Virus record (IMG/VR): IMGVR_UViG_3300050030_000022
Location: 9,182 to 73,181 of that record
DNA from: a virus
DNA: 64,000 bases
Strand: one strand, 5' to 3'
Shown here: in pieces, positions 14,081 to 64,000 of the stretch
How the letters are laid out: each line of letters starts with the position of its first letter
Numbering within the stretch: the stretch's first letter is position 1
Made by a program: the position numbers and the translations under genes
The notes under the pieces: model-generated
What the model was told of the DNA's origin: nothing
Seen by the model: the letters and a program-made list of their open reading frames with translations, nothing else
The model's database searches: none

Positions 14081-14111
14081 TTTTAAAATAATATAGATTA
14101 AACTTACGATT

Positions 14112-15492: not shown

Positions 15493-15506
15493 TATTCTTT
15501 GCCCGA

Positions 15507-15544: not shown

Positions 15545-15564
15545 CTTCCCTTTCCAAAAATAAG

Positions 15565-15948: not shown

Positions 15949-16126
15949 ACATATCTCCCGCAAGATAGCGGGTAAATTTAAATTGGTCGCCGTCCGGGAC
16001 ACCGATTGTTCACGCCGGGACTGCCTTAGACTGATGATAAAAGCCAATAGTGAATACTGCTGTAAGACACGGGAACTATTTGGGTGTCCGGCAAGGTCGA
16101 AATTACCGTTAGCTAAAAGAGATTAA
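15932..16126 (+). CDS. Small Cys-containing hypothetical protein
   Basis: Overlapping coupled ORF. Confidence 0.4.
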   Translation: MPTPTKHISRKIAGKFKLVAVRDTDCSRRDCLRLMIKANSEYCCKTRELFGCPARSKLPLAKRD

Positions 16127-16127
16127 T

Positions 16128-16730: not shown

Positions 16731-16741
16731 TATATTTTGAT

Positions 16742-31089: not shown

Positions 31090-31100
31090 AATGTTTATTA

Positions 31101-35139: not shown

Positions 35140-35307
35140 ATGATCGGAATAAAGTACATTTGGTTTTTATTTATGATAACACTGCTGTCATCTTGCGCCC
35201 CCATCCCGGTTGAATCTTACCAGGATTACCACCCGGATGGTGCGGTATACACACAATGCGACACGGTGATCAACGGCGACACGCTTTATTATTGGGTGAA
35301 GGAATAA
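35140..35307 (+). CDS. 55-aa lipoprotein (absent from ORF track)
   Basis: MIGIKYIWFLFMITLLSS-CAPIPV...CDTVINGDTLYYWVKE. Confidence 0.6.
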   Translation: MIGIKYIWFLFMITLLSSCAPIPVESYQDYHPDGAVYTQCDTVINGDTLYYWVKE

Positions 35308-36037: not shown

Positions 36038-36721
36038 ATGAAAGACCCCGCATTTTTATATTATGATGGCGATGCCGCTAAAGATGTTTCTCATATGAAC
36101 AGGCTCGAAAGGGGATGTTATTTTGACCTTATTCAAGCCCAACGCAAATTCCGTGGTTTTACCGTGGAACAAGCCCGGAAAATACTTGGTAAAGACTTTA
36201 GTGAATGTTGGGATGCTATTACTTTGATTTTGGAATGTGAAAATGATGTTTATTTTATTCCCTGGGTTCGTGAATCTTTATTAAAACGTGCTGAATTTAA
36301 AGAGATACAGAGGGAAAGAATCCAAAATTACTGGGATAAAAAAAATAATCCTGAATTAAACCGTGGTAATTCCACGGATATACCTTCTGAAAATGAAATT
36401 GTAAATGAATATTCTTTATTAGATTATAATACTATAACTAATATATTACTAAAAGAAGAGAGTTGGATTTCTGTAATTTGTATGAATTATAAATTAAACG
36501 AAAAACAAGTCGCAAATTATCTGAATCGCTATATAAATGATCAGCGAGTATCAAAACCCGGCAATCGTACTTTGGTTGATGTTCGCAATCATTTCAATAA
36601 CTGGTTGCGGATAAAGCAGGAGAATGCGGTTACTCGACCGCCATTAAAACAAATCACAGAAGAAAGCATTAAACGCGAGCGTGAAGAACGCCTGAAAAAC
36701 TGGAAACCACTTGAAGAATAA
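36038..36721 (+). CDS. Phage replication initiator / replisome organiser
   Basis: KDPAFLYY..D...ERGCYFDL N-terminus, HFNNWL C-terminal domain; upstream of DnaB. Confidence 0.75.
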   Translation: MKDPAFLYYDGDAAKDVSHMNRLERGCYFDLIQAQRKFRGFTVEQARKILGKDFSECWDAITLILECENDVYFIPWVRESLLKRAEFKEIQRERIQNYWDKKNNPELNRGNSTDIPSENEIVNEYSLLDYNTITNILLKEESWISVICMNYKLNEKQVANYLNRYINDQRVSKPGNRTLVDVRNHFNNWLRIKQENAVTRPPLKQITEESIKREREERLKNWKPLEE

Positions 36722-38138
36722 CTCGCCATCGGAATTAGGCAAGATTCAACCGCAGGCCGTGGAGTTGGAAGAGGCGGTATTGGGCGCTATTATGCTCGAA
36801 CCTGCGGCTTTGGCGTTGGCGTTGGTGTCCATCCAATCTGAGACCATCTTTTATAAAACTAACCATCAGGTTATCTTTAAAGCCATACTGGGGTTGTACG
36901 CCGAGAATAAGCCCGTGGATATAATGACCGTCACGGAAAGGTTAAAGATTAACGGCGACCTGGAACTGGCCGGTGGTGGCTATGGTGTGACCCAACTTAC
37001 CAATAGGGTAGCATCTTCGGCTAATATTGAATATCACATAGCCATCATTAAACAAAAATGGCTGCGCCGGGAGATGATCCGGCTGAGTAGTACATTGATA
37101 AAGCAATCCTTTGAGGATGATGAGGATGTGTTTGACGCAATAGATTCCCACATGTTGGGATTAATGGGGCTGTATAACACAATTAATATTACCTCTGCCG
37201 AACAGGTGGGAACAATAGCCCAACGCAACGCCGTCATTATTAAAAACACAAACCAGTCTGACTTCATAGGTCTGGCGAGTGGGTATAGATTGATAGATGC
37301 AGTCACAAATGGATTTCAGAATGGCGATCTGATTATTGTAGCTGGTCGTCCGGGGATGGGTAAAACCGCTTTTGGAATATCTATGATTTATCATATGGCG
37401 GTCACTTCGGGTATTCCGGTAGGGTTTATAAGTCTGGAGATGACTAAATTCCAGGTGGTGTTGCGCCTGCAATCCATTATGATCAACCTACCCTACCAGG
37501 ATTTAAGAAGCGGGGCGTTGAGTGAATCTCAGCAGGTTTTATTGGATGCGGATGTGCAGAAGCTATTAAAGACGAGGGCTTTCGTGGATGACACACCCTC
37601 GCTTACCATCATTCAGCTTCGGGCAAAGGCAATAGATATGGTCAGGTCTCATCAGGTTAAAATGATTATGGTGGACTACCTGCAACTTATGTCCGGGGTC
37701 AAGAAAGGACAGAACCGTGAGCAGGAAGTCAGTGAAATATCCCGTGGACTAAAGGCATTGGCTAAAGAGTTAGACATCCCCATTATTGCTTTCTCTCAAT
37801 TATCCAGGAAGGTGGAGGACAGGGGCAATGATAAAAAACCCATTTTGAGCGACCTACGTGAATCCGGTGCAATCGAACAGGATGCGGACATGGTTATCTT
37901 TTTATACCGGCCTGAGTATTACGGGAAAACCCAGGACGAGCAGGGCAATACTTATGAGAACGTGGGTATTGCTTTGATAGAAAAGCACCGGAACGGATCA
38001 ACGGGTGAATTTCGCCTTACTTTTGACAAGAGAACCATGTTTTATAAGAACTATAATTGGGATGATGGGGTTGTAGTACAAAAACAAACCCCACCGTATA
38101 AACAATTTAAAGACGAGGACGATGAAATGCCATTTTGA
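36711..38138 (+). CDS. dnaB: Replicative DNA helicase
   Basis: PQAVELEEAVLG, GRPGMGKT, VDYLQL, SQLSR, LRESGAIEQDAD, KHRNG. Confidence 0.97.
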   Translation: MKNNSPSELGKIQPQAVELEEAVLGAIMLEPAALALALVSIQSETIFYKTNHQVIFKAILGLYAENKPVDIMTVTERLKINGDLELAGGGYGVTQLTNRVASSANIEYHIAIIKQKWLRREMIRLSSTLIKQSFEDDEDVFDAIDSHMLGLMGLYNTINITSAEQVGTIAQRNAVIIKNTNQSDFIGLASGYRLIDAVTNGFQNGDLIIVAGRPGMGKTAFGISMIYHMAVTSGIPVGFISLEMTKFQVVLRLQSIMINLPYQDLRSGALSESQQVLLDADVQKLLKTRAFVDDTPSLTIIQLRAKAIDMVRSHQVKMIMVDYLQLMSGVKKGQNREQEVSEISRGLKALAKELDIPIIAFSQLSRKVEDRGNDKKPILSDLRESGAIEQDADMVIFLYRPEYYGKTQDEQGNTYENVGIALIEKHRNGSTGEFRLTFDKRTMFYKNYNWDDGVVVQKQTPPYKQFKDEDDEMPF

Positions 38139-38675: not shown

Positions 38676-39317
38676 ATGAAAGAGCATCCAATATTATTCA
38701 GTCCCCCAATGGTACAGGCAATCCTGGCCGGGCGGAAAACAATGACAAGGAGGATTATTAAACCGCAACCACCTGATGACATCTTTGAAACAGGATTATA
38801 CTGTCCAACAATGGTAGACCGGCACGGGGAAGAATATCCAGGATCAGAAAGATATGGCATTTCAAATGAGGCGTGGAGTATTAAATTTCCTTACGGTCAA
38901 CCCGGTGATAAACTTTGGGTACGGGAAACATTTCAGATAGTTCCGCCAAATTTTATTTTTTACAAAGCAGACCCGGAGAATAAAGCTAAAACGGGATGGA
39001 AACCCTCAATCTTCATGCCCCGATCCGCTTCCCGGATTGACTTAGTTATTAAGTCGGTCAGGGTGGAAAGGCTAAATGATATATCTAATACTGATGCCCT
39101 TAATGAAGGAATTGAAAGAAAGATAAAGTTTCCAGATGAGGAACCCGATACTTTGTTTTATCGGGATTATTCTTTTAAAAGGGAAAGATTTGCAAGAGGG
39201 ATTTTATTCGGGCCAAAAGAATCATTTAAAACTCTTTGGGAATCCATCAACGGCAAAGAATCCTGGCAATCGAATCCTTGGGCATGGTGCATAATTTTTG
39301 AAAGGATATACGGATGA
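38676..39317 (+). CDS. ASCH/PUA-like phage protein
   Basis: PILFS.PMVQAILAGRKTMTRR, LWVRET, WKPSIFMPR, NPW. Confidence 0.8.
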   Translation: MKEHPILFSPPMVQAILAGRKTMTRRIIKPQPPDDIFETGLYCPTMVDRHGEEYPGSERYGISNEAWSIKFPYGQPGDKLWVRETFQIVPPNFIFYKADPENKAKTGWKPSIFMPRSASRIDLVIKSVRVERLNDISNTDALNEGIERKIKFPDEEPDTLFYRDYSFKRERFARGILFGPKESFKTLWESINGKESWQSNPWAWCIIFERIYG

Positions 39318-39565
39318 AACCAAACACAAAGAACTATCTAATCTTCTGGCTTGCCGTGGTGATCACGTCTATTTTTATGGCGGTTGCCTGCCAGAAACCC
39401 GACCAACCGGAATATTGTTTCGAGTGCCACAGCCCTCAAATGACAAAACTCGTCCAGTGCGGGATAAGCGAAACCGATATGCAGACCGTAATCGACAAGC
39501 GCATTGAATTATTTGGAGATACCATGAAGTGCGAAAAGAAATTTAATTTAAATATTGAGCCATGA
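39314..39565 (+). CDS. Small Cys-rich lipoprotein
   Basis: ...FMAVA-CQK lipobox, CxxC. Confidence 0.65.
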   Translation: MKPNTKNYLIFWLAVVITSIFMAVACQKPDQPEYCFECHSPQMTKLVQCGISETDMQTVIDKRIELFGDTMKCEKKFNLNIEP

Positions 39566-40271
39566 AAGAACTAATCTTATGCGATGTGCCGGATGGGTAC
39601 CATTTGATTGATGGGTGCATTATTGCCGTCCCCACTGATTCAGATGAAACAGAAAAGTCCTGTGAGTTCACCGAAATCACCCTGCCGAGTGAGGACAAGA
39701 TTGATGACAAAATACAAGACATCGGCAAAGGATTAGGAATTGAGGGTATGGCAGGGGCAAGGTTAATGATTGAATGGTATTGTGAAAACTTAAATAAAAT
39801 AAATCCATGAAAACTACAGAAATATATTTACTTATGTGTGTCAGCTTTATTGCCGGTATCTGCATTGCTTTAGCGGTGTCAGCATTGATATATAATATTT
39901 ATGATGATATTCGAACGAAAAGAGAAATTCAGTATATGAACGAAGAAATCCGATTTTTAAAATGGCATAATTCCGTTAGTTTAAGGATTTCCAGAAAAAA
40001 CGCCATGCAAAAATCAGGATGCAGAAACTTTCCAGAAGAATAAACCGTAAAGTTGCATAATATGTACCTCTTAACAGATAAAAAGACACATCCCTACCTA
40101 TTGGAAGATACCGATTTTACTGAACCAGAGGTAAAGTGTGAAATTTGTGAGTTACCAGCAACTGAAAGAGTGGATTTAGACCCTGCAAATCCTGGGATAT
40201 ATCTGATTGATCTTTGCAAGGGTTGCGCTATGTTTGAGAAAGTAAGAATTAATAAAGAAATAAGATCATGA
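39562..40271 (+). CDS. Three small hypothetical ORFs (39562-39810, 39807-40043, 40053-40271)
   Basis: Coupled ORFs; one with a TM segment, one with two CxxC motifs. Confidence 0.5.
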
Positions 40272-40831
40272 AAACCTACACAAAAGAAGAATTAACGGAA
40301 ATCCTTAAACTACACGGATTATGGATACATAATGAAGGCGGAAGCCGTGCGAACTTGTCCGGTGCGGACTTGTCCGGTGCGGACTTGTTCGGTGCGAACT
40401 TGTCCGGTGCGGACTTGTTCGGTGCGAACTTGTCCGGTGCGAACTTGTCCGGTGCGGACTTGTCCGGTGCGAACTTGTCCGGTGCGTACTTGTCCGGTGC
40501 GGACTTGTTCGGTGCGAACTTGTCCCGTGCGTACTTGTCCGGTGCGAACTTGTCCGGTGCGTACTTAAATTTAACAAAAATATCCGATACGGAATATTTA
40601 GTCAAAACGTTTTTCATTAATGGTACACGGCATTCAGTATGTTGGTGGGGATTAAATCAAATCCAAATCGGATGCCATAAAAAAGACATTCCTTGGTGGA
40701 AAGCAAATTACAAGATGATCGGCAAACGGGAAGGTTACACACCGGAACAAGTCAAAGAATACTATCAATATATCCTGATGTGTGAGAAAATGCAGAAATC
40801 AGTTGACCCTATAAACAAGGTGAAATCATGA
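40268..40831 (+). CDS. Pentapeptide repeat protein
   Basis: 14 A(N/D/Y)L(S/F)G repeats; C-terminal IQIGC domain. Confidence 0.9.
40349..40566 (+). repeat. 15-bp tandem repeat (about 14.5 copies) encoding pentapeptides
   Basis: GCG(A/G/T)ACTTGT(C/T)CGGT units. Confidence 0.95.
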
Positions 40832-42910: not shown

Positions 42911-45900
42911 ATGACTAACGAGGGTCTTCTTCCGCAAAATCAAAAACTTACCATCATCCCAACGGGGATAAAACGCCATCAGCACGATCTGAATTGTGAA
43001 GATGCGGGATGTGAGGAAGTTGTGAACCTGCGTTTTAAGAACGGCAGTTGGCGCACGGTGGGTGAAAAAACCGCTGTATGGTCATGGGATCACGGGTGTG
43101 CTTTACTTTATTACCATGCTTACATCAATGAAAAGAATGGTACGGATTACTATGTGGGTGTGGCTTATGAGGGGTTGGGCTTACCTAATCTTTATTTAGT
43201 TAAGCCAACAGCCCAAACCAAAACCTCCATCAAGGGCATTTCCACCGATCCAAGTGAAACCGTATTATCCGTTACCAGTCTAAACTCGATCCTAATTGTC
43301 ACCACTGCGGATAAAGAACTGATATTTAATTGGGACAATGACACCTCGGCTTATGTGGAACTCTCAAAAGACATTTGCCCGGACATTTCATTTCAGTACC
43401 AGGTCAGCCCTGATGCTACCGACTGGATTATTATTACCGGCGGAGATTATAAGGAGTTTGACACTCAAGCTGAATTGTTCGACCAAATCCTGATTGAAAA
43501 GTATAAGAAACGCCAAAAGGGTTTATTCTCTCACTGTTGGATCATGATTCAGTGGGCTTTTCGGTTATGGGACGGCTCTTACATACGACATTCCCAACCA
43601 TTTTTACTCAAATTAAGCAACGGAACTCCGGACTATTGGCAGACCTTAGTGGAGGCCGCAAAATACCATACGATACTTGAAACGGGGATTCCAAAGTTTT
43701 ACATCAATATGCCCACGGCGGTACGTGCCAATTTAGAGCATTACAAGGGGCTTATTTCAGACCTGTGTGTATTTATGTCACAGGACGTGTCCCAATACCT
43801 GTGTGAGTACAACGGTTCACCGTACACCACGGATGGAGTTGGACACCGTTACGCTTTCTCAGACAACACCGACTCCCTGCACCAACTTGTTAATCTTTAT
43901 CCGTATTACCTTGCCAAAGAGGTAAAGTATTCCGAATTAATGGAATCGGATAACACCACTAAGTTTGAGATTAATCTGAATGAAGTTATTAATAAACTGA
44001 ATTTCTCAGGGGATGGCGGTGAAAATATCGACACGGTAGAAAAAATACCCGTCAGGCACAATACTTATTCATTTAAGAGATTGGGCGGTGGTAATTGGCT
44101 GAATCTGCTATATGGTGGTTTTGGTGCTTTAACTAAAAATGGAAATTGGAATAAAGTATGGTACACCCAAGACGATGCTGAACAAACCGTTGAGGCTACC
44201 GATGAGGCCGGGTCGTTCATTTTGCAATCACAACCCGAACTACCCGTTGACGACTTTTCCAATCACACCCTTATAGGTAACGCCACCCCGTATATTTACA
44301 ATGCCAAATTACATAAGGGCAATATCAACGTCAGGTTTGGTAACGCACCCCAATTCTCCGAATGGAATGCCTTTACAGGTTATACTTTGATGCCTGCCGG
44401 AGATATGCCAGGTATATGGACTTTTTACCGGGAGGTCAAGATAGTGACCGATTTGGGCGACCGCTATGTTAGGGAAGTCTTTACTCCCTATCTCCAGGTA
44501 AATATATCGAGCGATATGTTGCGCATACCCCCGATTGTGTCCTATCCTGACGCAAGGGCTACGCGAATAAGAATTATCATCAAGAAAACCGGGGATGCTA
44601 ATTATTACGAAATGGCATCCTTTGAACTTAAATCCCACAAGATTTACAATTACGCTTACTGCATAACCAACGAAACCACGACTGGCGCAGACCCGGAATA
44701 CCTGCTTTTTGATTTTACAAATATCGTTTTTACCAATAATTTCCCCGCCTCTTTCCCGAATGTCTGCGGGGTAAACGGTATAGACGCAATGGCAACCGAT
44801 GATCGTTACTACTTGGATAAAAACCGGGTGCAGGTGTCAAGGATTAACAACGCTCTATATTACCCCTCGATGTATTCCTACCAGTTTGGAAACTCTGAAA
44901 CCGTTATTTTGGCTTTCGGGAGCCAGTCTGCCCCCATATCCCCAGGACAGTTCGGGCAGTTCCCGCTAAGTGTTTTCACTTCTCAAGGTATATTTTTAAT
45001 GCAGCAGGGCGGCGGGGATGTTATCTACTCAGCTATTGTTCCCTTAAACAACGAAGTTGCGTTTAAAAACTCCATCTGTGAATTAGGCGGGGCAATAGTA
45101 TACGCCAGCCGGGATGGATTAAAGATACTTTCAGGCAACCGGCTGCAACACATCTCCCGTGAAGTGGAGGGCGTACCTTCGGATAAATTAATCAATGATA
45201 GTTACTATATTAACTTCATAACCAACGCGGACGGTCATTTGGTCAATCTGTACCAATACCTGAGCGAAGAAGATTTTCTAACCTATCTGGATGAGAACGT
45301 CAGGGTGTGTTATGACAAAATGAATAAAGAACTCATTATCTCTAACCGGGATTTATTTACCGATCAGGGGAGGAATAGTTCTTCGGGGTATTCTTACGTT
45401 TACAATTTACCTTACAAGACCTGGCACAAGATCACCGACACCTGGCATCAGTTTATCTTAGTAAATAGCCGTTGGGTGGGGTTAAAGAATTACCGGGCGG
45501 GGTACACCACGGGATTGGGCGCACAATATATGGACGGCGAAACCTCTGTTTTACAAGACTGCATGATTCAATCCAGACCTATGAAGTGGGGCAGTTATGA
45601 GTTTAAAAAAATGCGCACGATTGTTCAGCGATCCCTTTGTTGTGTTGGTGATATACTGGATTCCCCACAAGATGCCGATGATAAATTTGGGATGTATATG
45701 TTCGCCAGTTTGGAAAATAACATCTGGAAATTTGTCAAAGGCATTAAAGTATCTCAGACTTTTGGCATGATACAGCACCCCACTTTGGGAAGTAATGAAG
45801 CCTCCGTGCGCCAGATCGTTTTACTGACGGCTGTAAAGAGCAAGGATATGGTGTTTTCCCATTGGGAAATCCTGCGGGGGCTTACCAACCCTGATAAGTT

Positions 45901-46006
45901 GGGAACCGAAGCTCGCCATGATACCGAAAACCTTTTAGGGGAATACGATGCCCAGCAGTACGGCGAAAGTTATGATATTGGAATTTCAACAGAAAATCTA
46001 CCATGA
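42911..46006 (+). CDS. Tail nozzle / stabilisation protein (P22 gp10 or tail tubular B-like)
   Basis: SYPDARA, ISPGQFGQFPL.VF...GI, SRPMKW motifs recalled from Bacteroidota podovirus tail proteins. Confidence 0.7.
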   Translation: MTNEGLLPQNQKLTIIPTGIKRHQHDLNCEDAGCEEVVNLRFKNGSWRTVGEKTAVWSWDHGCALLYYHAYINEKNGTDYYVGVAYEGLGLPNLYLVKPTAQTKTSIKGISTDPSETVLSVTSLNSILIVTTADKELIFNWDNDTSAYVELSKDICPDISFQYQVSPDATDWIIITGGDYKEFDTQAELFDQILIEKYKKRQKGLFSHCWIMIQWAFRLWDGSYIRHSQPFLLKLSNGTPDYWQTLVEAAKYHTILETGIPKFYINMPTAVRANLEHYKGLISDLCVFMSQDVSQYLCEYNGSPYTTDGVGHRYAFSDNTDSLHQLVNLYPYYLAKEVKYSELMESDNTTKFEINLNEVINKLNFSGDGGENIDTVEKIPVRHNTYSFKRLGGGNWLNLLYGGFGALTKNGNWNKVWYTQDDAEQTVEATDEAGSFILQSQPELPVDDFSNHTLIGNATPYIYNAKLHKGNINVRFGNAPQFSEWNAFTGYTLMPAGDMPGIWTFYREVKIVTDLGDRYVREVFTPYLQVNISSDMLRIPPIVSYPDARATRIRIIIKKTGDANYYEMASFELKSHKIYNYAYCITNETTTGADPEYLLFDFTNIVFTNNFPASFPNVCGVNGIDAMATDDRYYLDKNRVQVSRINNALYYPSMYSYQFGNSETVILAFGSQSAPISPGQFGQFPLSVFTSQGIFLMQQGGGDVIYSAIVPLNNEVAFKNSICELGGAIVYASRDGLKILSGNRLQHISREVEGVPSDKLINDSYYINFITNADGHLVNLYQYLSEEDFLTYLDENVRVCYDKMNKELIISNRDLFTDQGRNSSSGYSYVYNLPYKTWHKITDTWHQFILVNSRWVGLKNYRAGYTTGLGAQYMDGETSVLQDCMIQSRPMKWGSYEFKKMRTIVQRSLCCVGDILDSPQDADDKFGMYMFASLENNIWKFVKGIKVSQTFGMIQHPTLGSNEASVRQIVLLTAVKSKDMVFSHWEILRGLTNPDKLGTEARHDTENLLGEYDAQQYGESYDIGISTENLP

Positions 46007-48579
46007 AAAAACTATTATTGTTTTGTTTTATAGCATTAATTAGTTGTTCGGTTTTTGCTCAGGTCAAGTCAGATGCGGACATGAACACCTATAACAATAC
46101 TTATATCAAACCCAACAATACAGGCGCGATAAAGGCGACTATGCACAACACCCTGAATAAGTATATCATCAACTCCAAAATCAACCGGGACTCGATTGGT
46201 AATGTGCAGGTATTGGGTGATACGGCTTTGGTGGTCATTTATAAGAATAACCCGCCTGATACGGTACAAATAGTTAATGCCTCCACAAGCGGATGGGCGA
46301 CTTCTGGAGATTACGTTTATTTAATCAATGTCGGCGATAGTGTAGGGATTGGAACAGCCTCTCCGGGTTATAAATTATTTGTCAACGGTGGTTTTGGCGG
46401 GTCAACTTATATGGTTTTACAACCTACTGCAAAATCAGGGGCACGTGACGGGCAGATTTATAATGATGTAGATAATCATTTATATTATTATAATGGATTG
46501 GCGTGGAAACAACTGGACAACGCTTCAGGGGAGGTGGACATCTCAGGTGATACGTTATTTGTCAACGGCGATACGATAATCGTAAGCCCAAACTACTGGG
46601 CTAAGGACATAGCCGGCAATATTACCAATAACAATACCGGAGATGTACGGATAGCTAACGACATCCAATTTGTCGCCGGTCAAACGCACGCTATCGGGAT
46701 TACAAATAACACACCTTATCCCGGCAATCACCTGTTAATCCAGTCTGGTATAGGGACGATAACAGGAACTTCCATTGCGGGAAACATCTACATAACGCCT
46801 CCTTTAGCGGACACGCCCGGCAATGTTATTCTAAACGTGGACACAGCCGGAAACAAAAATGGATTCACCGGGATTGGCGTGGCAGTGCCGCAGCAAATGT
46901 TAGACGTTGGCGGACAGATCAAGGTTCATTCGTTGGACACCTTAATCGGGAAGCATCTTATTTTGGTATTTGACGAAACGGATAGCACTCTGGCAGTGAT
47001 TCCATTTGATTCTGTGGGGGGTGGGGGTGCTTCCCTGTGGTATCTCTCCGGTGATACCGCTAATACTGTTTATAACGTGAAGTTGGATTCTAATTTATTC
47101 CTGAATAAAAACCTTAATCTTGTCACAACAACCGCAACAGACGGGCAGATAAAGCAAAATGGAACGACAGTATTTCATACTTATCACGAAAAGGGGGACA
47201 ATAACTTATTTATCGGACAGGGTGCGGGAAATTTTACAGCTGATTCAAGTGGTAATATAGGAATAGGTGCAAGTGTATTAGATGCTTTAACTATAGGATA
47301 TAGAAATGTTGCAGTTGGTTATAAGGCACTTGATAAATGTTATAAAGGTTTTGAAAATGTAGCAATAGGGTTTGAATCATTGTATAATGATACAAGTGGT
47401 ACTAAAAACACAGCAATAGGTGCATATGCACTTGCTGGAAATTTAAAAGGAAGTACTAATACGGCTATTGGAAGTGCAGCATTATATTTAAATTCTATTG
47501 GTATTAGTAATACCGCATTAGGTTTTGCGACTTTGTATAATAATGCAGGAGGTTATAATTCTGTAGCACTTGGATATATGGCTATGTATAATGCATATAA
47601 TGGAACAAGCCTTCGTGGTACTTATAATACCGCTATTGGCTATGAAGCCATGAAAGGTAGTGCAATCCCTGCAAACAATACTGGTCAATATAATACAGCT
47701 ATTGGCTATCAGGCATTAGATGCAATGACATCAGGCGAAAAAAATACCGCCATTGGTGTAGATGCATTGGGCGCAAATACAACCGGCTCCAATAATATCG
47801 GCATAGGTTACAACGCAGGCAATACAGCAGCTTATGCAACCCTTTCTAATCGCATCTACATTGGAACCGGTGACACTGCGACCGCACCGATTTATGTGAA
47901 TGCGGGTATCGGTAAGACAACCATCAACGGCGACCTTCATGTCACCGGCAACCTGACAGTAGACGGCACCTCTCCCGGCGGTGCTGAAAGTGATCCCGTC
48001 TGGATAGCAGATAGTTCGGCTTTTCTTAGAACGATTGACACCAATACTTATGTCGCTTCGCACAAATGGGTAACGGATAAAGGGTATTTAACCGCTTTAC
48101 CGGCTTCCGCTTTGGAATGGTCGGACACCACAGCAAGTGCAGGGGTAGGGGTAGGCACCTTTGACGACATAAGAGATACGGCAGCCGCTATCCGGGCAGA
48201 CTTCCCCGCTCCCGGTGGGGGTGTACCGCCTGTAATCATTTCCTGGGACGGTCAGGGTGGTGTTGTTGGAACCGGAAATACAGTTTACCGGACAATGGCT
48301 TATGCCGGGACGATAACGGGCTGGTCAATCACAGCAACGGGGACTTCGCCGACTTGTACGATTGACATTTGGCGGGTGGCAACGGGTGGAACGACTTTGC
48401 CGGCGGTCGGTAATACAATCATGGGGACAAAGCCGGCTCTATCTACCGGGAATATCATACGAAGCACCACTTTAACGGCGTGGAACCCTGTGGCTTTTTC
48501 AGCCGGGGACACTTTCGGGTTTAATATAGGCGCCTGTGCGGCTGCTTTAAAAATAACATTTTCTTTAACGATACAATAA
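46003..48579 (+). CDS. Tail fibre with Sec signal peptide, YadA-like NTAIG repeats and C-terminal jelly-roll-like domain
   Basis: MKKLLLFCFIALISCSVFA-Q; VGIGT.SP; repeated N(T/V)A(I/L/V)G; follows nozzle gene with ATGA overlap. Confidence 0.75.
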   Translation: MKKLLLFCFIALISCSVFAQVKSDADMNTYNNTYIKPNNTGAIKATMHNTLNKYIINSKINRDSIGNVQVLGDTALVVIYKNNPPDTVQIVNASTSGWATSGDYVYLINVGDSVGIGTASPGYKLFVNGGFGGSTYMVLQPTAKSGARDGQIYNDVDNHLYYYNGLAWKQLDNASGEVDISGDTLFVNGDTIIVSPNYWAKDIAGNITNNNTGDVRIANDIQFVAGQTHAIGITNNTPYPGNHLLIQSGIGTITGTSIAGNIYITPPLADTPGNVILNVDTAGNKNGFTGIGVAVPQQMLDVGGQIKVHSLDTLIGKHLILVFDETDSTLAVIPFDSVGGGGASLWYLSGDTANTVYNVKLDSNLFLNKNLNLVTTTATDGQIKQNGTTVFHTYHEKGDNNLFIGQGAGNFTADSSGNIGIGASVLDALTIGYRNVAVGYKALDKCYKGFENVAIGFESLYNDTSGTKNTAIGAYALAGNLKGSTNTAIGSAALYLNSIGISNTALGFATLYNNAGGYNSVALGYMAMYNAYNGTSLRGTYNTAIGYEAMKGSAIPANNTGQYNTAIGYQALDAMTSGEKNTAIGVDALGANTTGSNNIGIGYNAGNTAAYATLSNRIYIGTGDTATAPIYVNAGIGKTTINGDLHVTGNLTVDGTSPGGAESDPVWIADSSAFLRTIDTNTYVASHKWVTDKGYLTALPASALEWSDTTASAGVGVGTFDDIRDTAAAIRADFPAPGGGVPPVIISWDGQGGVVGTGNTVYRTMAYAGTITGWSITATGTSPTCTIDIWRVATGGTTLPAVGNTIMGTKPALSTGNIIRSTTLTAWNPVAFSAGDTFGFNIGACAAALKITFSLTIQ

Positions 48580-48580: not shown

Positions 48581-49786
48581 ATGAAAAAATACTTATTGAT
48601 ATTAATGATATTGCCCCTGCTTAGTTTTGGCGGCAAACGCTATTGGGTCGGCGGGGGGGCCTCGGCCAACTGGAGTGCAACCGGTAATACTAATTGGTCA
48701 TTGACTTCCGGCGGGGCAGGTAATGCAGCCGTCCCGGGTACGAGTGATTCAGTTTATTTTGACGGGGCGGGAAGTGGAAATTCCGCTTCGACCATCTCGG
48801 CAACGATAACGGTAATGAGATTTGAGATTACATCAGGTTACACGAATACGATAACTCACAATGCCGTTCTGACCTGCTCAGGTGATTTCACCCTTAACAC
48901 CTCTTACACTATTGCGGGGAGTTCACCTGTCACGCTTTCGGGTACTTGTACCATTACATCTGGCGGCAAAACATGGCCTAATGCAATGACATTTTCTGGA
49001 GCGAACACAAAAACACTTTCTGGTAATTTAGTAATTTCAGGAGATTTAACTCTTTCAACTGCGAATAGTATTATTAATTGGACGACAAATGAAACCTTAT
49101 CATGTGCGGGACTAATGATCAGTGGAAGTCAAGCAGCTGGCACGGCTAAAATTATAGTAACTGGCGGAATACTTTATATGAACTCTTCAGGTTATATGGC
49201 TGGAAATAATATAGATATTCAGGGAAATGTAACGATTGGAGTAAATTTTGGGTTCGGAAATTCGAAAACATTAACTTATGTAAGCGGAACAGTCACAACT
49301 ACTTCATCAACATTTTATATATTAGGGAGTTGTACTTTAAATACTGCCGGAATTGCGTGGAATAATATTTATGTTAACTCAGATGCGACTATTACTAATA
49401 ATTCTTTATTAACGGTTACCGGAACATATACAATGGCATCATGGAATGTTTCATGGCAAGGAAACTATGGGTTTACCGTTGGAACTTTAGTCATGTCGTC
49501 AACTTCAAATTCAAGTGCCCTTACCCTAAATGATGGGGTGACTTATACCGTAACAACTGTCTTGCAGGCATATCTTTCCAGAAAGGGTTCTATTGTGACA
49601 ATCACATCAGACGATGCAACGAATAAAGCAATATTAACCCTTAATCAGGGAGCGACCTGTAACGTTTTGGCGAACCTTACAAGGATAGACGCCTCGGCGG
49701 GCAGAACGATTTTCACATTTAACGGAACAATAACAAACTGCCTGAATGTGGTCGAAATGCACGACCGGGCAACGGTAGGAAACTAA
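48581..49786 (+). CDS. Signal-peptide-bearing beta-solenoid protein (putative fibre/receptor-binding)
   Basis: MKKYLLILMILPLLSFG; RYWVGG...NWS..SGG...VP...D.VYFD; T/S/N/G-rich. Confidence 0.65.
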   Translation: MKKYLLILMILPLLSFGGKRYWVGGGASANWSATGNTNWSLTSGGAGNAAVPGTSDSVYFDGAGSGNSASTISATITVMRFEITSGYTNTITHNAVLTCSGDFTLNTSYTIAGSSPVTLSGTCTITSGGKTWPNAMTFSGANTKTLSGNLVISGDLTLSTANSIINWTTNETLSCAGLMISGSQAAGTAKIIVTGGILYMNSSGYMAGNNIDIQGNVTIGVNFGFGNSKTLTYVSGTVTTTSSTFYILGSCTLNTAGIAWNNIYVNSDATITNNSLLTVTGTYTMASWNVSWQGNYGFTVGTLVMSSTSNSSALTLNDGVTYTVTTVLQAYLSRKGSIVTITSDDATNKAILTLNQGATCNVLANLTRIDASAGRTIFTFNGTITNCLNVVEMHDRATVGN

Positions 49787-49869
49787 CATTTAAAACTGGC
49801 AAAAGAACACTGGAACCTGAAAAGATACCAACCTAAAATTATAGACGATTAACACTTAAAACTAACAAT

Positions 49870-50754
49870 ATGAAAACAATTAAAACACTTTTCTTAATTT
49901 CTTTACTGACTTTTGCTTTGGCAAGTCAGGGGCAGACAACGCAATTATACTATAAGGGTTGCGGCAAAGTGCAATCAAAAACGTTTGATCTGACTTATGG
50001 AACCAACGGTCAAGATAAACCCGTGGGCAACCATTTTAAATTCTGTCTTTTAAAAGACGGGAACTATTTGTATGGTCAGGATGCACTTACTGAGGCTGAA
50101 AAACCTGTTTGGGGTGATAATCAAAATCGAACAATCGAAGAGTTGTTACCTCATTTGACGCCCGATGTCGGCGTGAAATTCTTATACAGTAATAACTGGC
50201 ATCCAATAGCCGTGGATAGCCTGCCAACTACACTGGGTACTACCTATCAACTAAGAGTTTGGAGTGGGAATTATTCTGGTGGTCAAAAAACATATTACAA
50301 ATCCAGTGAAATGCCCTTTGAGTCGGTACAGTATTGGCTCAGCATTGGTTTTTTTACGGAATGGAAACAATATAATTTGCCTGACCGAACTGCTTCAATA
50401 AACCCTGACTGGATCAATAACGAAGCGATCCGTACCGTTGAACGTGCGGAATACAAACAGATTGTACAGGAATACTTTGCCCTCATGGGCGACTACTCGT
50501 TTCCGACTTTTCCAACTAACCCTTCTGCGTTAGGTGGCTGTGACAGTTGGGTATGGAAAATCCAGTATAGCGGAGAATCCTGGCAAACCTTAACAGTTGA
50601 TCCGACCTTTTGGCTTGCATCACCAAATGGATTCCCTATAATTCTTTACAGGGAAATTCCGATAAGTTGCAAATACTATAATTTGCAATGGGATAGCAAG
50701 ATAAATAATACGATATCGGGCGAAGATCGAGTGAAAAGACTTTTAGGAATGTAG
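49870..50754 (+). CDS. Secreted hypothetical protein
   Basis: MKTIKTLFLISLLTFALASQG-Q signal peptide. Confidence 0.65.
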   Translation: MKTIKTLFLISLLTFALASQGQTTQLYYKGCGKVQSKTFDLTYGTNGQDKPVGNHFKFCLLKDGNYLYGQDALTEAEKPVWGDNQNRTIEELLPHLTPDVGVKFLYSNNWHPIAVDSLPTTLGTTYQLRVWSGNYSGGQKTYYKSSEMPFESVQYWLSIGFFTEWKQYNLPDRTASINPDWINNEAIRTVERAEYKQIVQEYFALMGDYSFPTFPTNPSALGGCDSWVWKIQYSGESWQTLTVDPTFWLASPNGFPIILYREIPISCKYYNLQWDSKINNTISGEDRVKRLLGM

Positions 50755-50777: not shown

Positions 50778-50803
50778 AAACCCCGTATTTAACGGGGTTT
50801 TTT
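50778..50803 (+). terminator. Rho-independent terminator ending tail module
   Basis: AAACCCCGT-ATTTA-ACGGGGTTT followed by TTT. Confidence 0.85.
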
Positions 50804-50842
50804 ATTATACCTTATATTATTATTAAATATATTTTATAGTTT

Positions 50843-59239: not shown

Positions 59240-60157
59240 ATGAAAACACTATTGACAATTCTAAGTTTATGTTTTTCCCTGTCGCTACTGGCGCAGGAAA
59301 CACCCGTTGCCATAACCGCAACCGCAACCGCTACGCAAATTACCTGGAAATGGCACACGTCTATCGGGGCGACTGCCTACAAATTTAACACGGTCAACGA
59401 TTACTCCACGGCAACCAATATGGGGACGGACACCGTAAAGGTAGAAACCGGGCTAACGGCAAACACTTCTTACGCCCGGTACGCTTGGGCTTACAATACG
59501 TGCGGTCATTCTTCCTCAGTGGCGATGACAAAAAGCACAATGGATGATTTTGTTTGTGGTGCGACAATAACAGTAGTACATACTGTAGGTATAGTCGCTC
59601 CGGTTACTAAAACAGTAACCTATGGCACAGTAGATAGCATACCGGGGGAATTGACAAAATGTTGGATAACCAGTAACCTTGGTTCAGATCATCAGGCAAA
59701 CGCTAAAAACGACACCACGGAAGCCTCAGCAGGCTGGTACTGGCAATTTAATCGCATGCAAGGGTATAAAAATGATGGTGTAACCAGGACACCAAGTACC
59801 ACCTGGATTACCGATATAAGTGAAGATCTTGACTGGCAGGCTGCCAATGACCCATGTGCCCTTGAACTTGGCAGTGGATGGCGTCTTCCGACCTCAACTG
59901 AATGGGCTAATGTGGATGCAAGTGGAAACTGGACGAACTGGAATGGCCCGTGGAACTCTGCTTTAAAAATGCATTTAGCCGGGTGTCTGTATACGTGGGA
60001 TGATTCCCTCGATTTCAGGGGATCCTTCGGATTTTATTGGAGCAGTTCAAAGTTTGATAATCTACAAGGTAGATATTTAGAATTCTTTAATTCTTTTTGC
60101 ATTGTGGGAACAACTCAGAAAAAAACCGGTGCCACTGTCCGTTGTATTCGAGAATGA
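59240..60157 (+). CDS. Secreted FN3-like plus FISUMP/C-type-lectin-fold protein
   Basis: Signal peptide LLA-Q; CWITSNL, GWYWQFN, GWRLPT..EW, YWSSS, VRCIRE. Confidence 0.8.
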   Translation: MKTLLTILSLCFSLSLLAQETPVAITATATATQITWKWHTSIGATAYKFNTVNDYSTATNMGTDTVKVETGLTANTSYARYAWAYNTCGHSSSVAMTKSTMDDFVCGATITVVHTVGIVAPVTKTVTYGTVDSIPGELTKCWITSNLGSDHQANAKNDTTEASAGWYWQFNRMQGYKNDGVTRTPSTTWITDISEDLDWQAANDPCALELGSGWRLPTSTEWANVDASGNWTNWNGPWNSALKMHLAGCLYTWDDSLDFRGSFGFYWSSSKFDNLQGRYLEFFNSFCIVGTTQKKTGATVRCIRE

Positions 60158-60881
60158 CAATTTGATTTATCAAGCAATAAAGATTAAATAAGCATAGAAG
60201 AAAAGTATTGAATTATTTCAAGAATGGATTAACATTTCATGCAAGTCTCCTTTTTACTCATGATATTGAAGATTTTATTGAGTGCATAAGTTTTTATTAT
60301 GTTCCAGGATTCTAATTATAAATCAATTTCAGAATAAAGTTGCAGAAAGCCTGTGAAAAACTACCTAATCATAGGCTTTGTGTAAATCGCTATCACTAAT
60401 GGTTTAACTTCATTATAAGGCTGGTTATTAAATAGTGAAGATCTTTATCCTCCTGATCTTGTAATCCAAGGAGATTTTGACTTTGCCTTCATAAATGCTT
60501 AATAATCTATAAGCTTTTACTTTAGAATTGTTCCATATAAGGCTTTCCCTTAAATTTTTTCTCATATATGAGAATAATATTGGAAATTATCACTTACATT
60601 TAAGGCAATTAATCCAATTTGCCAAACCATCATCTACCATGGCACGCAAGACTGTGCAAACCTATACTTTTATGGACTCAATGGAAGGAGTTGCTATAAC
60701 TTACGGCAATTGTACCTTCATCGAATTTACTTTTAATCTAAGATGCCGTATATTAAGATATTAAATCCTTTTTCATTTTTGTATTCGGCTAATAACATAT
60801 ATTATCGATTATCTAATTATTGTAATTTTAATACAGAACAGGTCTACGAAAAATTCTTGACCAATTTTAAATTTAATCACA

Positions 60882-61871
60882 ATGAAAATAAAAATCATCT
60901 TCTTTCTTACTTTGGCTTTTATAGGGTTTAAAACTTCCATTGCTCAGGAAAAATTGCCTCTTCATTGGGATGTTGAGAAAATATCATTGACTCATTGGAA
61001 CACTCCTGATGGACTCCCATATAAACAGGTTCCAGGAGCTAATCTTGGGCCCATATCGTTCGCTTCTTTAGATCAACAGCGTATTGCTTTTTTATCCAGT
61101 CCAACATGTGAGATAATTATTATTAGTACTTCAGACGGGAAAGCCATTAAAACATTTCCAGTGAAGTTAGCTCCGCGCGATTTCGTTTATGACAAAGGAT
61201 TATTTTATGTTTTAACGGAATCAGATATAACGGTATATGATGAATCGGGGAAAACAATAAATCTTTTCCCTTTTAAAAAATATTATGGAGTTGAAAGGTT
61301 GATGAGGTTTAACAATTCTACTTATCTATGGCTTCCTTCAGGTAACAGCTTGAAAATTGAATCAGAGGCCAAGACTGTTGCAGAAGAATATAGCGGATGG
61401 ATAACATCGGCAGGAGACTTTATAGTTATTGATATTCAGGGAGATTATAATTATTATATTAATCTTTCAAGAAATAACAAAACATATGAAACGACTTTAT
61501 CTACAAATAAGAAAGTAGCTGGAGTATATGTTATAGGCTCAACTGAAAATCGATTATTTTTTGATGTTCAGACATTTCTTTCCGAAAATCCTATCGTTAT
61601 TGAAAGACATTTTGTTGCTGTTGAACTTAATGATAGTGGCATAGGTTCTGTTATTACAGAAATCAAAGTCCCAGATTGCTATTATATTTTTTCCAACAAA
61701 GAAATAGACCTCACACCAAATGCACAACTGCTTAATATGGTTACATCACCTGATGGAGTATATATTTTCTCTTTAAACGAGTCAGATTCAAAAATGATAA
61801 AAACCTATCCCGAAAACTTACTGGAAATAAAATACCATTATAATGATCATCTTATTAATCCAGAAAAATAA
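60882..61871 (+). CDS. Host-like secreted beta-propeller-like protein
   Basis: Signal peptide SIA-Q; AT-rich codons. Confidence 0.65.
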   Translation: MKIKIIFFLTLAFIGFKTSIAQEKLPLHWDVEKISLTHWNTPDGLPYKQVPGANLGPISFASLDQQRIAFLSSPTCEIIIISTSDGKAIKTFPVKLAPRDFVYDKGLFYVLTESDITVYDESGKTINLFPFKKYYGVERLMRFNNSTYLWLPSGNSLKIESEAKTVAEEYSGWITSAGDFIVIDIQGDYNYYINLSRNNKTYETTLSTNKKVAGVYVIGSTENRLFFDVQTFLSENPIVIERHFVAVELNDSGIGSVITEIKVPDCYYIFSNKEIDLTPNAQLLNMVTSPDGVYIFSLNESDSKMIKTYPENLLEIKYHYNDHLINPEK

Positions 61872-61901
61872 TTAATTTCTAATCAAAACAATCCTTAAAA
61901 A

Positions 61902-64000
61902 ATGAAAAATTATACATATAGTTTATCGCTAATATTTAGGTTCAGTCTAATATTTATATTGTCTTCTTTTTCTTTAATCAGCTTTGGACAATTAACTAGA
62001 ACTCAGATAATAAACAATGCCACACCCTATACAAGCTTTTCATGGACTGCAAGTTCTTGTAACTTATGGAGTGGCGTATACTGTGGGGGAAGAATTGTTT
62101 ATTCAGCAGATATTCCTTGGGTAAATGTAGGCACTAATATATCTATGCCTTATTGTTGGGGCGGCTGGTCTACAATATCTGAACATAACACTGCTATGAC
62201 AAATTGCAAATCCGCTGGGGACATTTGCTCACCAAGTGGTGGTGGATGTTCAGGCTCTGGTGCTGGTTTAGGATGTGCAAGTGGTCACGATTGTTCTGGT
62301 TTAGTATCAAGAGCATGGGCTTTAACTTCAAAGTATTCTACTACAATGCTAAATGATATTTCTACTCCAATTGAATTAACATCGACCCAGCAAGGAGATA
62401 TTTTAAATGATGCTGGCTCTCATGTTAGATTAGTAGAAACTAATTATGGAAATGGTAATTATCGTGTTATTGAAGCATCCGGCACAGATTGGAAAGTTGC
62501 ATATCATACTTATACAACTGCTCAGCTAAGCGGTTATGATCCAAGATGTTGGGATGATGTTATTGGAGGTTGTGGTGGTGGATCAGCGCCCATTAATGAT
62601 GACTGCTCTGATGCAATTCTTCTTACATCAAGCTCAAGTTGCAATTATATATCAGGTGATATTGAAGGCGCAACTCAGTCCATACCAGCTATACCCTGTG
62701 ACGGTTATACCAGCACCCTAGTGCAAGATGTATGGTATAAATTTGTCGCCGTATCAACATCTCATACAATCACCGTTGATCCATCTTCCGGTCTGGATGC
62801 TGTCGTAGATCTTAGATCTGGCCCGTGTAACGGCACTACTATTGATTGCTCCGATAACGGAGGTGGTCAAGGAGGTATTGAAATCATTTATGCTACAGGA
62901 TTAACAATAAATCAGACTTATTATGTGAGGATTTATGATTATACTTCGAATTCTACCCCTCCTAGTTCGACTACCTTCGATATTTGCATAACCGCAGAAT
63001 CCACTCCAATTTGTGTTGATTGCCCGGAATATGATTTCACTCTTACATCTTCTACTTCATGGCAAACACATTCATCCTCGCATGGTGAAGACGGATGTAA
63101 AATGTATAGGGTCAATGTCACTTCCGGCAGAACTTATACATTTAAAACAGGATGTGGGGATGGTGCAACCGCCGATTATGATACTTACCTGGAACTTTAC
63201 AATTCAAGCTGTAGCTTAATCGCCTCTGATGACGATGATTGCGAAGAAACCAGATCATTAATTGAATGGACTGCAAATTATTCCGGCTATGCCTATTTAA
63301 AAGTCAGAGGTCTTAGTAATGATTATGGTAATTATACTTTAGCCTACATGTACTGTACGCCTCCATCTGCACCATCTACTATTGATGCCGTGGCTTCCTC
63401 CAGCTCTCAGATCGATATAACCTGGGAAAATGTAAGCAATGAAGATGGATATTATGTTTTCAGATCTACAACCTCTGGTGGAACTTATTCTCAAATTGCC
63501 TCAACAGGGGCTAATGTCAATTCTTATTCAAATACAGGATTACCGGCTAATACTCAGTATTGCTATAAAGTTAAAGCCTATAATTCAGCCGGATCATCTG
63601 GTTTTTCTCCCTATGATTGTGCTACCACCTTGAATACTCCGCCAGCCGCTCCTTCTACACTTGATGCCGTGGCTGTATCGAGCTCACAGATAGATATAAC
63701 CTGGGAAAATGTCAGTAATGAAGATGGATATTATGTTTTCAGATCTACAACCTCTGGTGGAACTTATTCTCAAATTGCCTCAACAGGGGCTAATGTCAAT
63801 TCTTATTCTAATACAGGGTTGCCGGCTAATACTCAGTATTGCTATAAAGTTAAAGCCTATAATTCAGCCGGATCATCTGGTTTTTCTCCCTATGATTGTG
63901 CTACCACCTTGAATACTCCGCCAGCCGCTCCTTCTACCCTTGATGCTGTGGCTTCTTCCAGTTCTCAGATCAATATAACCTGGGAAAATGTCAGCAATGA
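61902..64000 (+). CDS. Host-like secreted NlpC/P60 + PPC + FN3-repeat protein (runs off window; absent from ORF track)
   Basis: Manual translation: signal peptide FG-Q, PYCWGG, HDCSGLVSRAW, GDIL..AGSHV, NDDC..A, DVWYKF, tandem FN3. Confidence 0.8.
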   Translation, partial: MKNYTYSLSLIFRFSLIFILSSFSLISFGQLTRTQIINNATPYTSFSWTASSCNLWSGVYCGGRIVYSADIPWVNVGTNISMPYCWGGWSTISEHNTAMTNCKSAGDICSPSGGGCSGSGAGLGCASGHDCSGLVSRAWALTSKYSTTMLNDISTPIELTSTQQGDILNDAGSHVRLVETNYGNGNYRVIEASGTDWKVAYHTYTTAQLSGYDPRCWDDVIGGCGGGSAPINDDCSDAILLTSSSSCNYISGDIEGATQSIPAIPCDGYTSTLVQDVWYKFVAVSTSHTITVDPSSGLDAVVDLRSGPCNGTTIDCSDNGGGQGGIEIIYATGLTINQTYYVRIYDYTSNSTPPSSTTFDICITAESTPICVDCPEYDFTLTSSTSWQTHSSSHGEDGCKMYRVNVTSGRTYTFKTGCGDGATADYDTYLELYNSSCSLIASDDDDCEETRSLIEWTANYSGYAYLKVRGLSNDYGNYTLAYMYCTPPSAPSTIDAVASSSSQIDITWENVSNEDGYYVFRSTTSGGTYSQIASTGANVNSYSNTGLPANTQYCYKVKAYNSAGSSGFSPYDCATTLNTPPAAPSTLDAVAVSSSQIDITWENVSNEDGYYVFRSTTSGGTYSQIASTGANVNSYSNTGLPANTQYCYKVKAYNSAGSSGFSPYDCATTLNTPPAAPSTLDAVASSSSQINITWENVSN
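63384..64000 (+). repeat. 279-bp near-identical tandem repeats encoding 93-aa FN3 domains (at least 2.2 copies)
   Basis: GATGC(C/T)GTGGCT at 63384, 63663 and 63942 with near-identical downstream sequence. Confidence 0.9.

Follow-up and report, generated by a model that had tools for sequence, protein, structure and literature searches.

Sec-type leaders on a putative tail-fibre cassette of a Bacteroidota phage

Introduction

Sec-exported endolysins of tailed phages (signal-peptide or signal-arrest-release (SAR) forms, such as Lys44 of fOg44 and P1 Lyz) are pre-placed in the periplasm and act when the holin fires, and the exported proteins T5 llp and lambda lom and bor are encoded beside tail-fibre or receptor-binding genes. 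The prevailing view is that tailed-phage particles themselves are built wholly in the cytoplasm, and all tailed-phage assembly known to us is cytoplasmic; fibres and tailspikes can attach spontaneously as its last step. Here, we analyse a 64,000-nucleotide (nt) stretch of viral DNA (the window; bases 9182-73181 of the 73,181-nt linear IMG/VR record IMGVR_UViG_3300050030_000022, with an estimated completeness of ~80%) in which three adjacent open reading frames (ORFs), a fibre-type gene (ORF-A) and its two downstream neighbours (ORF-B and ORF-C), begin with Sec-type leaders (Table 1).

Two features of protein export in the presumed host phylum bear on these genes. The available parts of two reports describe a Q-rule in Bacteroidetes, by which signal peptidase I substrates carry Gln at +1 that is turned into pyroglutamate (PMC5837995, PMC10653852), and the accessible part of a third describes a general O-glycosylation of Bacteroidota that acts on the sequon D-(S/T)-(A/I/L/V/M/T) (PMC8550257).

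Results

Leaders of ORF-A, ORF-B and ORF-C

A previous sequence-only reading of the window had reported Sec-type leaders on ORF-A, ORF-B and ORF-C and none on the 1031-amino-acid (aa) ORF upstream, which it called a nozzle; we recover the same coordinates and N-termini, as well as the single terminator that ends the block, a 9-bp stem followed by a T-run at 50778-50800. Leaders were called with an n/h/c-region heuristic that asks for a positive n-region, an uncharged hydrophobic h-region of ~8-16 residues and small residues at -3/-1, and the N-termini of all three ORFs pass it. The AlphaFold2 models show a detached N-terminal helix, at residues 2-13 in ORF-B and 2-18 in ORF-C.

The nearest relatives of ORF-A, ORF-B and ORF-C all retain leaders, in agreement with the earlier claim that this is not a chance leader on one gene. 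A search with residues 1-360 of ORF-A found three relatives: P0124 and P0125, where leader and Q are followed by the conserved mature start QVKSD..TYNNTYI, and P0126, which matches just 12% of the query and has its hydrophobic segment further in. Besides ORF-A, P0124 and P0125 were the only proteins in which its mature N-domain was found, and both are leader-bearing. Gln stands at the leader junction of ORF-A (Q20) and of these two relatives, and at that of ORF-C (Q22) and of the leader-bearing members of its family (13/13, with Gln within 7 residues past the hydrophobic core). The same reading would have been given up if homologues lacked leaders: the closest ones carry them, but most of the wider ORF-B and ORF-C families are leaderless (79 of the best 120 ORF-B relatives listed; 16/29 for ORF-C). 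On these comparisons, the leaders are probably working Sec/signal-peptidase-I export signals in a Bacteroidota host.

Other explanations of the N-termini were tried and rejected. ORF-A has L-I-S-C at residues 12-15, as in a lipoprotein signal, and this was dismissed because the Cys is not conserved, P0124 and P0125 having none there; the leaders of ORF-B and ORF-C contain no Cys. Cargo for type IX secretion (T9SS) was dismissed, as no C-terminal sorting domain (Pfam Por_Secre_tail, NCBIfam T9SS models) is found on ORF-A, ORF-B or ORF-C; the C-terminal domain of ORF-A occurs in leaderless phage proteins too. A leaderless isoform made from an internal start was dismissed for ORF-B since the stretch from its leader to Arg20 holds no in-frame start codon (residues 17-20 are encoded by GGC GGC AAA CGC), and the next Met of ORF-A is residue 27, within the conserved mature domain.

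Leader state of fibre and ORF-B-type pairs

ORF-A matches tail-spike and virion structural PHROGs (phrog_4636, a tail spike, phrog_6002 and phrog_23837; E 1e-27 to 2e-21), the matches being confined to its repeat region at residues ~358-514. The Atlas clusters nearest to it are viral and tail-fibre-like, all under the 0.9 bar and so leads only; the same holds for all Atlas scores of its N-terminal part and of ORF-C. No Pfam or NCBIfam family was found for ORF-A, ORF-B or ORF-C, nor a match to PDB sequences for ORF-A or the 1031-aa ORF.

BLASTP puts the C-terminal domain of ORF-A (alignment A4) at 27-71% identity with the ends of fibre-like ORFs, or with ORFs of 99-137 aa that stand alone, at 12 loci, and these ORFs lie just upstream of ORF-B-type genes. 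A phmmer scan of 182 loci (L002-L081 and L085-L186) gave 36 hits. Among them, 28 form a pair with an ORF-B-type gene, and in this set leader state is shared throughout: both members are leader-bearing in three pairs (L085, L086, L087), neither in 25, and none is discordant. Clustered at 70% identity, the 28 pairs reduce to 23 clusters, one leader-bearing and 22 leaderless; the window adds a fourth pair with both leaders, which is a second leader-bearing lineage. Eight further C-terminal-domain ORFs have no ORF-B-type gene within three genes, and all of them (8/8) are leaderless. This concordance suggests, at the level of sequence, that fibre and ORF-B-type products must share one compartment. 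It also sustains part of the earlier proposal of a complete exported receptor-binding sub-assembly or its chaperones, in that the leaders are not due to chance and agree across fibre and ORF-B pairs; ORF-C, which does not regularly accompany ORF-B-type genes in the loci scanned, falls outside it.

Leaderless relatives of ORF-B are found in tail-fibre positions. In the cultured Methylophilaceae phage P19250A, such a relative lies directly behind the genes labelled 'host specificity protein J' and 'tail fiber protein'; gp20 of this phage gave no hit with a hidden Markov model (HMM) of the C-terminal-domain alignment. In L006, a complete record with terminal repeats, the ORF-B relative stands amid ORFs that match minor-tail, tail-fibre and virion-structural PHROGs. 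A part in a fibre is the natural reading of the function, taken from the family's usual position. In L085, four large leader-bearing ORFs lie in one co-directional block, which gives no sign by family of being a morphogenesis operon, 9/10 of its flanking genes having no PHROG match. A complex predicted for the C-terminal domain of ORF-A (A4) and mature ORF-B (A1, residues 18-401) scored 0.00 with controls not run, and is given no weight either way.

At 16175-21057 of L085, two adjacent leader-bearing ORFs of 503 and 1122 aa have a common conserved mature start and Q at both junctions, and are enriched in O-glycosylation sequons (6 vs 2.3 and 16 vs 5.0 expected).

Three N-terminal forms of the ORF-B family

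ORF-B is made of a 17-aa leader and a beta-helix protein whose mature part begins at a conserved R-Y-W-V-G-G-G motif, W22 being invariant and R20 nearly so in the family alignment (A1). AlphaFold2 predicts an all-beta solenoid (mean predicted local distance difference test score, pLDDT, 92.1) that has no significant match in the PDB (best E 0.82, template modelling (TM) score 0.27), and no enzyme family was found for it in Pfam, PHROGs or NCBIfam; a PHROG search gave no match for either ORF-B or ORF-C.

Among 8000 candidates scored, 423 relatives of ORF-B were found at E <= 0.001, and the best 120 of these, window copy included, were sorted by N-terminal form. A leader immediately 5' of R-[YF]-W-V-G-G is present in 33/120, and 58/120 are bare, starting M-A-A-R-[YF]-W. 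The remaining 29/120 carry an N-terminal PT-HINT domain (PF07591) that ends in H-N and is followed by A-S-R-[FY]-W; such forms occur among P0018-P0120 (for example P0040, residues 20-150), and 8/29 are leader-bearing as well. The pattern misfiled a few rows, P0013 being a truncated leader and P0046, P0063, P0119 and P0120 being Hint forms scored as bare. Leaderless relatives thus counted make up 79 of the 120 listed (58 bare and 21 with Hint only). PT-HINT domains release the part downstream of them, as in polymorphic toxins. Since the Hint domain ends in HN directly before A-S-R-[FY]-W-V-G-G, its predicted self-cleavage would give the same N-terminus as leader removal. Judged from these sequences, three routes (Met removal, signal peptidase and PT-HINT) would expose the same mature N-terminus, at most ~2 residues from the conserved Arg. 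ORF-B of the window has no Hint domain.

Leader state is labile in this family. On a FastTree tree of the 120 proteins it requires 17 parsimony changes, at least 7 of which are forced by well-supported branches (Shimodaira-Hasegawa-like support only, no bootstrap), so that both routes must be compatible with what ORF-B does. The classes are not told apart by cysteine content (1.16 per 100 aa in leader-bearing vs 1.26 in bare members).

Full-length relatives of ORF-B are mainly viral: 458 of the 563 IMG/VR pattern matches encode relatives, 274 loci were found in metagenome contigs, and 185,579 species genomes gave a single near-full-length match, on a phage-like contig. Its N-terminal domain (YWVGG...NWS.TSGG) is found, too, at the start of bacterial proteins with signals, 717 to >3000 aa long, from Bacteroidota and other phyla. 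Single-protein scans of IMG/VR with ORF-B and with ORF-C found no relatives.

The ORF-C family

A word-indexed search with ORF-C found one relative, leader-bearing and 61% identical, and a HMMER scan of 1.84 billion representatives gave 28 proteins at E <= 0.001, the query included. In all, 13/29 family members are leader-bearing and 16/29 leaderless; in the alignment (A2), ~20 cleanly inserted columns ahead of the conserved mature start make up the leader, present in 13/23 rows and lacking in 10/23. Cysteine content is 0.70 per 100 aa in leader-bearing vs 0.39 in leaderless members. AlphaFold2 predicts an alpha/beta protein (mean pLDDT 89.2) without a match in the PDB or BFVD (best TM 0.08-0.15).

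ORF-C was found in none of the 401 Bacteroidota genomes sampled. An HMM of A2 gave no hit in the ORFs of 80 IMG/VR loci, 16 metagenome loci and 4 related records, and a scan with alignment A3 returned 31 pattern hits, none of them a relative. Within the reach of these scans, which took in 160 related loci, ORF-C does not regularly accompany ORF-B. It may be an adaptor, a folding helper or a receptor blocker. The earlier suggestion that ORF-B and ORF-C are periplasmic chaperones finds no backing, as neither has a Tfa-, gp38- or gp57-type match in Pfam, PHROGs or NCBIfam and their predicted folds are without known relatives.

O-glycosylation sequons in ORF-A

ORF-A contains 14 sequons where 3.8 are expected (~3.7-fold), a count reached by 0/1000 shuffles, and no other of the 40 window ORFs with 150 aa or more reaches its sequon density. 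The sites lie in varied contexts, many of them G-D-T/S. Eight leader-bearing fibre-like proteins together hold 71 sequons vs ~30 expected, and eleven leaderless fibres with the C-terminal domain hold 39 vs ~52 expected. As a mark of periplasmic life, the enrichment read from the ORF-A sequence is suggestive only.

Gene layout of the window

The three genes close a long rightward block (Table 1). ORF-A overlaps the stop of the 1031-aa ORF by 4 nt, ORF-B starts 2 nt past the stop of ORF-A, and ORF-C lies a further 83 nt on from ORF-B; SSB, a PDDEXK nuclease and a phrog_3657 gene are found 3' of the block. The GC content of the cassette (0.42-0.44) is that of the remainder of the phage. Searched by blastn in 50,697 phage records, the 8-kb block had no match.

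Table 1. Features of the window discussed in the text.
Feature	Position in window	Strand	Remarks
SU10-type major capsid protein	1999-3360	-	family match
Large terminase	6214-8196		family match
P22-type portal	19027-21054	-	family match
3350-aa ORF	21064-31116	-	adjoins portal
DnaB	36711-38138		inside long rightward block ending in ORF-A, ORF-B and ORF-C
1031-aa ORF	42911-46006	+	N-terminus MTNEGLLPQNQK, without hydrophobic leader
ORF-A	46003-48579	+	858 aa, fibre-type; starts MKKLLLFCFIALISCSVFA, then Q
ORF-A leader	46003-46059	+	residues 1-19; Gln20 is the predicted mature N-terminus
ORF-A C-terminal domain	48214-48576	+	residues 738-858; precedes ORF-B-type genes in many phages
ORF-B	48581-49786	+	401 aa; starts MKKYLLILMILPLLSFG
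ORF-B leader	48581-48631	+	residues 1-17
ORF-C	49870-50754	+	294 aa; starts MKTIKTLFLISLLTFALASQG, then Q
ORF-C leader	49870-49932	+	residues 1-21; Gln22 is the predicted mature N-terminus
Intrinsic terminator closing the block	50778-50807	+	stem-loop 50778-50800 of 9 pairs (5 GC) with a loop of 5, then T-run

The only isolate matches of the portal are three Bacteroides phages, at 36-37% identity. The 1031-aa ORF matches phrog_32516 (unknown function; E 5.6e-23) and has distant homologues, 25-27% identical over 19-30% of its length, in BS-TP4, BF1-TP2 and BKO1-TP3, all Bacteroides phages; the homologue is labelled 'putative structural protein' in one Bacteroides phage record. By its homologues, the 1031-aa gene is a conserved large protein of this phage group. 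BS-TP4 and BKO1-TP3 are temperate according to the part of PMC12694917 that is available, which also gives the large BS-TP4 counterpart of the 3350-aa ORF as the target of a diversity-generating retroelement. In the window, the 3350-aa ORF has a RadC-like JAB domain at residues 2179-2272 and is depleted in sequons (2 vs 9 expected).

Leader-like N-termini are found in 12/50 ORFs of at least 150 aa in this record vs 46/1203 (3.8%) in the other fetched loci. A second leader-bearing cluster lies at window 59240-63998, with a 305-aa ORF, a 329-aa ORF and a 3'-open fn3 ORF whose leader ends before Q; the GC content is 0.31 at 60-62 kb. This cluster continues at the left end of the record (bases 1-9400, L082), at 64-5069 and 7060-8403, with a Fib_succ_major protein (E 5e-41), maybe 5'-truncated, a lipoprotein-like fn3/Lcl_C protein of 536 aa, a NAGPA phosphodiester glycosidase that bears a leader, and an ORF of 447 aa having Q at +1. 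Should the genome be circularly permuted, the open ORF at the right end may form a single gene with the first one at the left end.

Genes of glycan type occupy window 8469-17329 (radical SAM, a GT47-like domain, a polysaccharide pyruvyl transferase and a methyltransferase), where either surface-glycan or DNA modification is possible. The capsid protein has a hydrophobic stretch of ~27 aa after M-K-T-R-D, with its PHROG match running from residue 6, and this start may be a real N-terminal extension or may be mis-set. Lipoprotein-type starts, a hydrophobic stretch followed by Cys, are seen in small ORFs at 8257-8460, 35140-35307 and 39314-39565, and a pentapeptide-repeat ORF (A-D-L-S-G type) at 40268-40831 has several PHROG matches of unknown function.

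Discussion

ORF-A, ORF-B and ORF-C would represent a horizontally mobile tail-fibre cassette placed on the end of a conserved operon in a podovirus-like Bacteroidota phage. Their three products would be made as Sec/signal-peptidase-I precursors, and would fold and mature in the host periplasm instead of the cytoplasm. ORF-A and ORF-B would act jointly and would then have to occupy the same compartment, and their job would be done outside the cell, after lysis. Because close relatives flip leader state, fibre and partner together, the simplest reading is such a post-lysis function, for which the compartment of synthesis would be irrelevant; with a job of this kind, the family could switch freely between cytoplasmic and exported synthesis. 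Once the holin opens the inner membrane, the pool of matured fibres in the periplasm would meet fibre-less particles from the cytoplasm, and the resulting fibres would carry host-type extracytoplasmic modifications. We favour this full chain, with its periplasmic maturation and joining of particles at lysis, but hold it only tentatively, as somewhat less than probable. It is a still more doubtful proposition that some Bacteroidota tailed phages export fibre parts by Sec, that these are folded, pyroglutamate-capped and O-glycosylated in the periplasm and fitted to particles when the holin breaks the membrane, and that the family switches freely among three routes to its N-terminus.

Several results weigh against this proposal. 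Leader calling used a heuristic of our own and not a trained predictor; it overlooked one obvious leader (the ORF at 61902) and may over-call transmembrane starts, such as that of the capsid protein. When gene order was shuffled 20,000 times, three or more leaders in a row arose with P ~0.39 (ORFs of at least 150 aa) or ~0.30 (at least 60 aa); since a run of three is unexceptional by chance, the case for the leaders rests on homologue comparisons and not on adjacency. Only two independent leader-bearing lineages of fibre plus ORF-B were found, and since most of the wider homologues are leaderless, core function does not need export; on the family comparisons, the proteins do not require it, and it is optional at the level of the lineage. 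Neither ORF-B, whose mature part starts G-K-R-Y-W, nor its leader-only relatives obey the Q-rule. Sequon enrichment is restricted to fibre-like proteins, ORF-B and ORF-C having one site each, and is missing from two of the eight leader-bearing fibres (548 aa in L085 and 533 aa in L086); observed/expected ratios do not differ between leader-bearing and leaderless members of the ORF-B (0.41/0.29) and ORF-C (1.28/0.94) families, and the leaderless control fibres differ in their middle parts, so that fold-specific G-D-T motifs could contribute. In the two contexts inspected, BS-TP4 and BF1-TP2, the homologue of the 1031-aa ORF closes the same co-directional block with no fibre cassette behind it, and the phage has other candidate receptor-binding proteins in its 3350-aa and 1031-aa ORFs. 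The record is rich in exported proteins, lectin-like and glycosidase genes among them, which fits envelope remodelling equally. A literature search, with supplements outside its scope, found no precedent for signal peptides on tailed-phage fibres or for their periplasmic maturation, and this lowers the prior.

In the main rival reading, which we consider rather unlikely, the proteins are exported without becoming part of the virion, and their place of action would be the periplasm or the envelope of an infected cell or a lysogen. They might bind or trim the phage's own receptor, be it glycan or protein, as in superinfection exclusion or so that progeny do not stick to debris, or might remodel the surface more widely. 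Leaders that look functional are as expected for such proteins, and the cassette is accessory, because none lies behind the 1031-aa homologue in BS-TP4 and BF1-TP2. The setting is likewise favourable, with leaders on 12/50 large ORFs, including lectin-like fn3/Fib_succ_major proteins and the phosphodiester glycosidase, and with the block of glycan-modifying genes; the beta-helix of ORF-B is the fold of many glycan-cleaving enzymes, and T5 llp and lambda lom and bor are leadered genes that adjoin receptor-binding genes. However, an 858-aa fibre with a partner would be extravagant for superinfection exclusion, which is usually achieved by small proteins, and ORF-B matches no glycosidase or lyase by family or fold. 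Close leaderless relatives of ORF-B occupy tail-fibre positions, so that, with at least 7 flips of leader state among them, an envelope role needs repeated switches of function. Moreover, ORF-A is translationally coupled to a conserved large gene with no promoter gap, and no signal for export to the outer membrane is present (no T9SS C-terminal domain).

Two further explanations fit the data less well than either periplasmic maturation of fibre parts or an envelope role. It is improbable that these are ordinary cytoplasmic fibre parts whose hydrophobic N-termini are bypassed, kept as an assembly or membrane-tethering helix, or tolerated. Tailed-phage assembly is known as cytoplasmic, most family members are leaderless, a run of three leaders is within chance for this genome, and leader cleavage is a heuristic prediction only; but the N-termini combine a positive n-region, an uncharged h-region and small -3/-1 residues, and Q follows the leader in 13/13 ORF-C family members and likewise in ORF-A relatives, a position at which it makes sense only if signal peptidase I cuts there. 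The leader stops where leaderless and Hint-fused relatives start their mature chain, no internal start yields a clean leaderless form, and ORF-A is enriched in sequons. Still more improbable is an origin as host surface or adhesin genes (morons) taken up by the phage, with an incidental resemblance to fibres, even if the N-terminal domain of ORF-B heads signal-bearing bacterial proteins and the nearest isolates inspected lack the cassette: the great majority of full-length ORF-B relatives are viral (458 loci), with one match in species genomes, ORF-C is found in 0/401 of the Bacteroidota genomes sampled, ORF-A matches phage tail-spike and structural PHROGs, and the GC content of the cassette (0.42-0.44) matches that of the phage.

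If fibre parts are truly exported and present in the virion, this would be the first extracytoplasmic step in tailed-phage assembly, and the fibres would bear glycans of host type as well as capped ends, which would affect their stability, the host range and recognition by lectins or the immune system. If the proteins are exported and stay outside the virion, they would form a new class of large fibre-derived envelope effectors. Annotation pipelines often rely on 'no signal peptide' for telling phage structural proteins from bacterial surface proteins, and the accessible part of one study reasons in this way (PMC6199706); such a rule would mislabel genes of the ORF-A, ORF-B and ORF-C type. A separate point on the processing of fibre parts, and one that can be checked, is that N-terminal maturation in the ORF-B family has three interchangeable modes.

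Among known systems, Sec-exported endolysins share the pre-positioning logic that is proposed here for fibre parts; they differ in being small wall enzymes with no part in the virion and have no homology to these genes. T5 llp and lambda lom and bor, which serve as the model for an envelope role, are small proteins without relation to fibres, expressed from signals of their own, whereas ORF-A overlaps the upstream stop and belongs, with ORF-B, to fibre-associated families. Of the features by which morons are recognised, the cassette has a terminator and is absent from the nearest isolates inspected, and, with ORF-A overlapping the gene upstream, it has no space for its own promoter. Q-rule substrates and O-glycoproteins are cellular envelope proteins in the available parts of the reports that describe them (PMC5837995, PMC10653852, PMC8550257); ORF-A and ORF-C share Gln at +1 with them, and ORF-A the sequon density, and our literature search found no phage fibre-type protein with both Gln at +1 and O-glycosylation marks. 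The PT-HINT-fused relatives have the same beta-helix body as the Hint-free ORF-B of the window.

A close likeness in gene order is to the leaderless cassettes in which a fibre C-terminal domain is followed by a beta-helix protein starting MAAR[YF]WVGG (L002, L004, L006 and L010, and P19250A, with gp21 after gpJ), where the same two families stand in the same order. ORF-B is 33-58% identical to its relatives in L002-L016; for the P19250A protein the figure is 33%, over 43% of ORF-B. These cassettes differ from that of the window in having no leaders, fibres without sequon enrichment and no ORF-C-type gene alongside. The L085/L086/L087 cassette has another phage backbone, no ORF-C relative and a cassette fibre that is not sequon-enriched. 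It resembles the window in that its fibre (68-71% identity in the C-terminal domain) and its ORF-B relative (58%) are both leadered, with two additional large leader-bearing ORFs in the same co-directional block.

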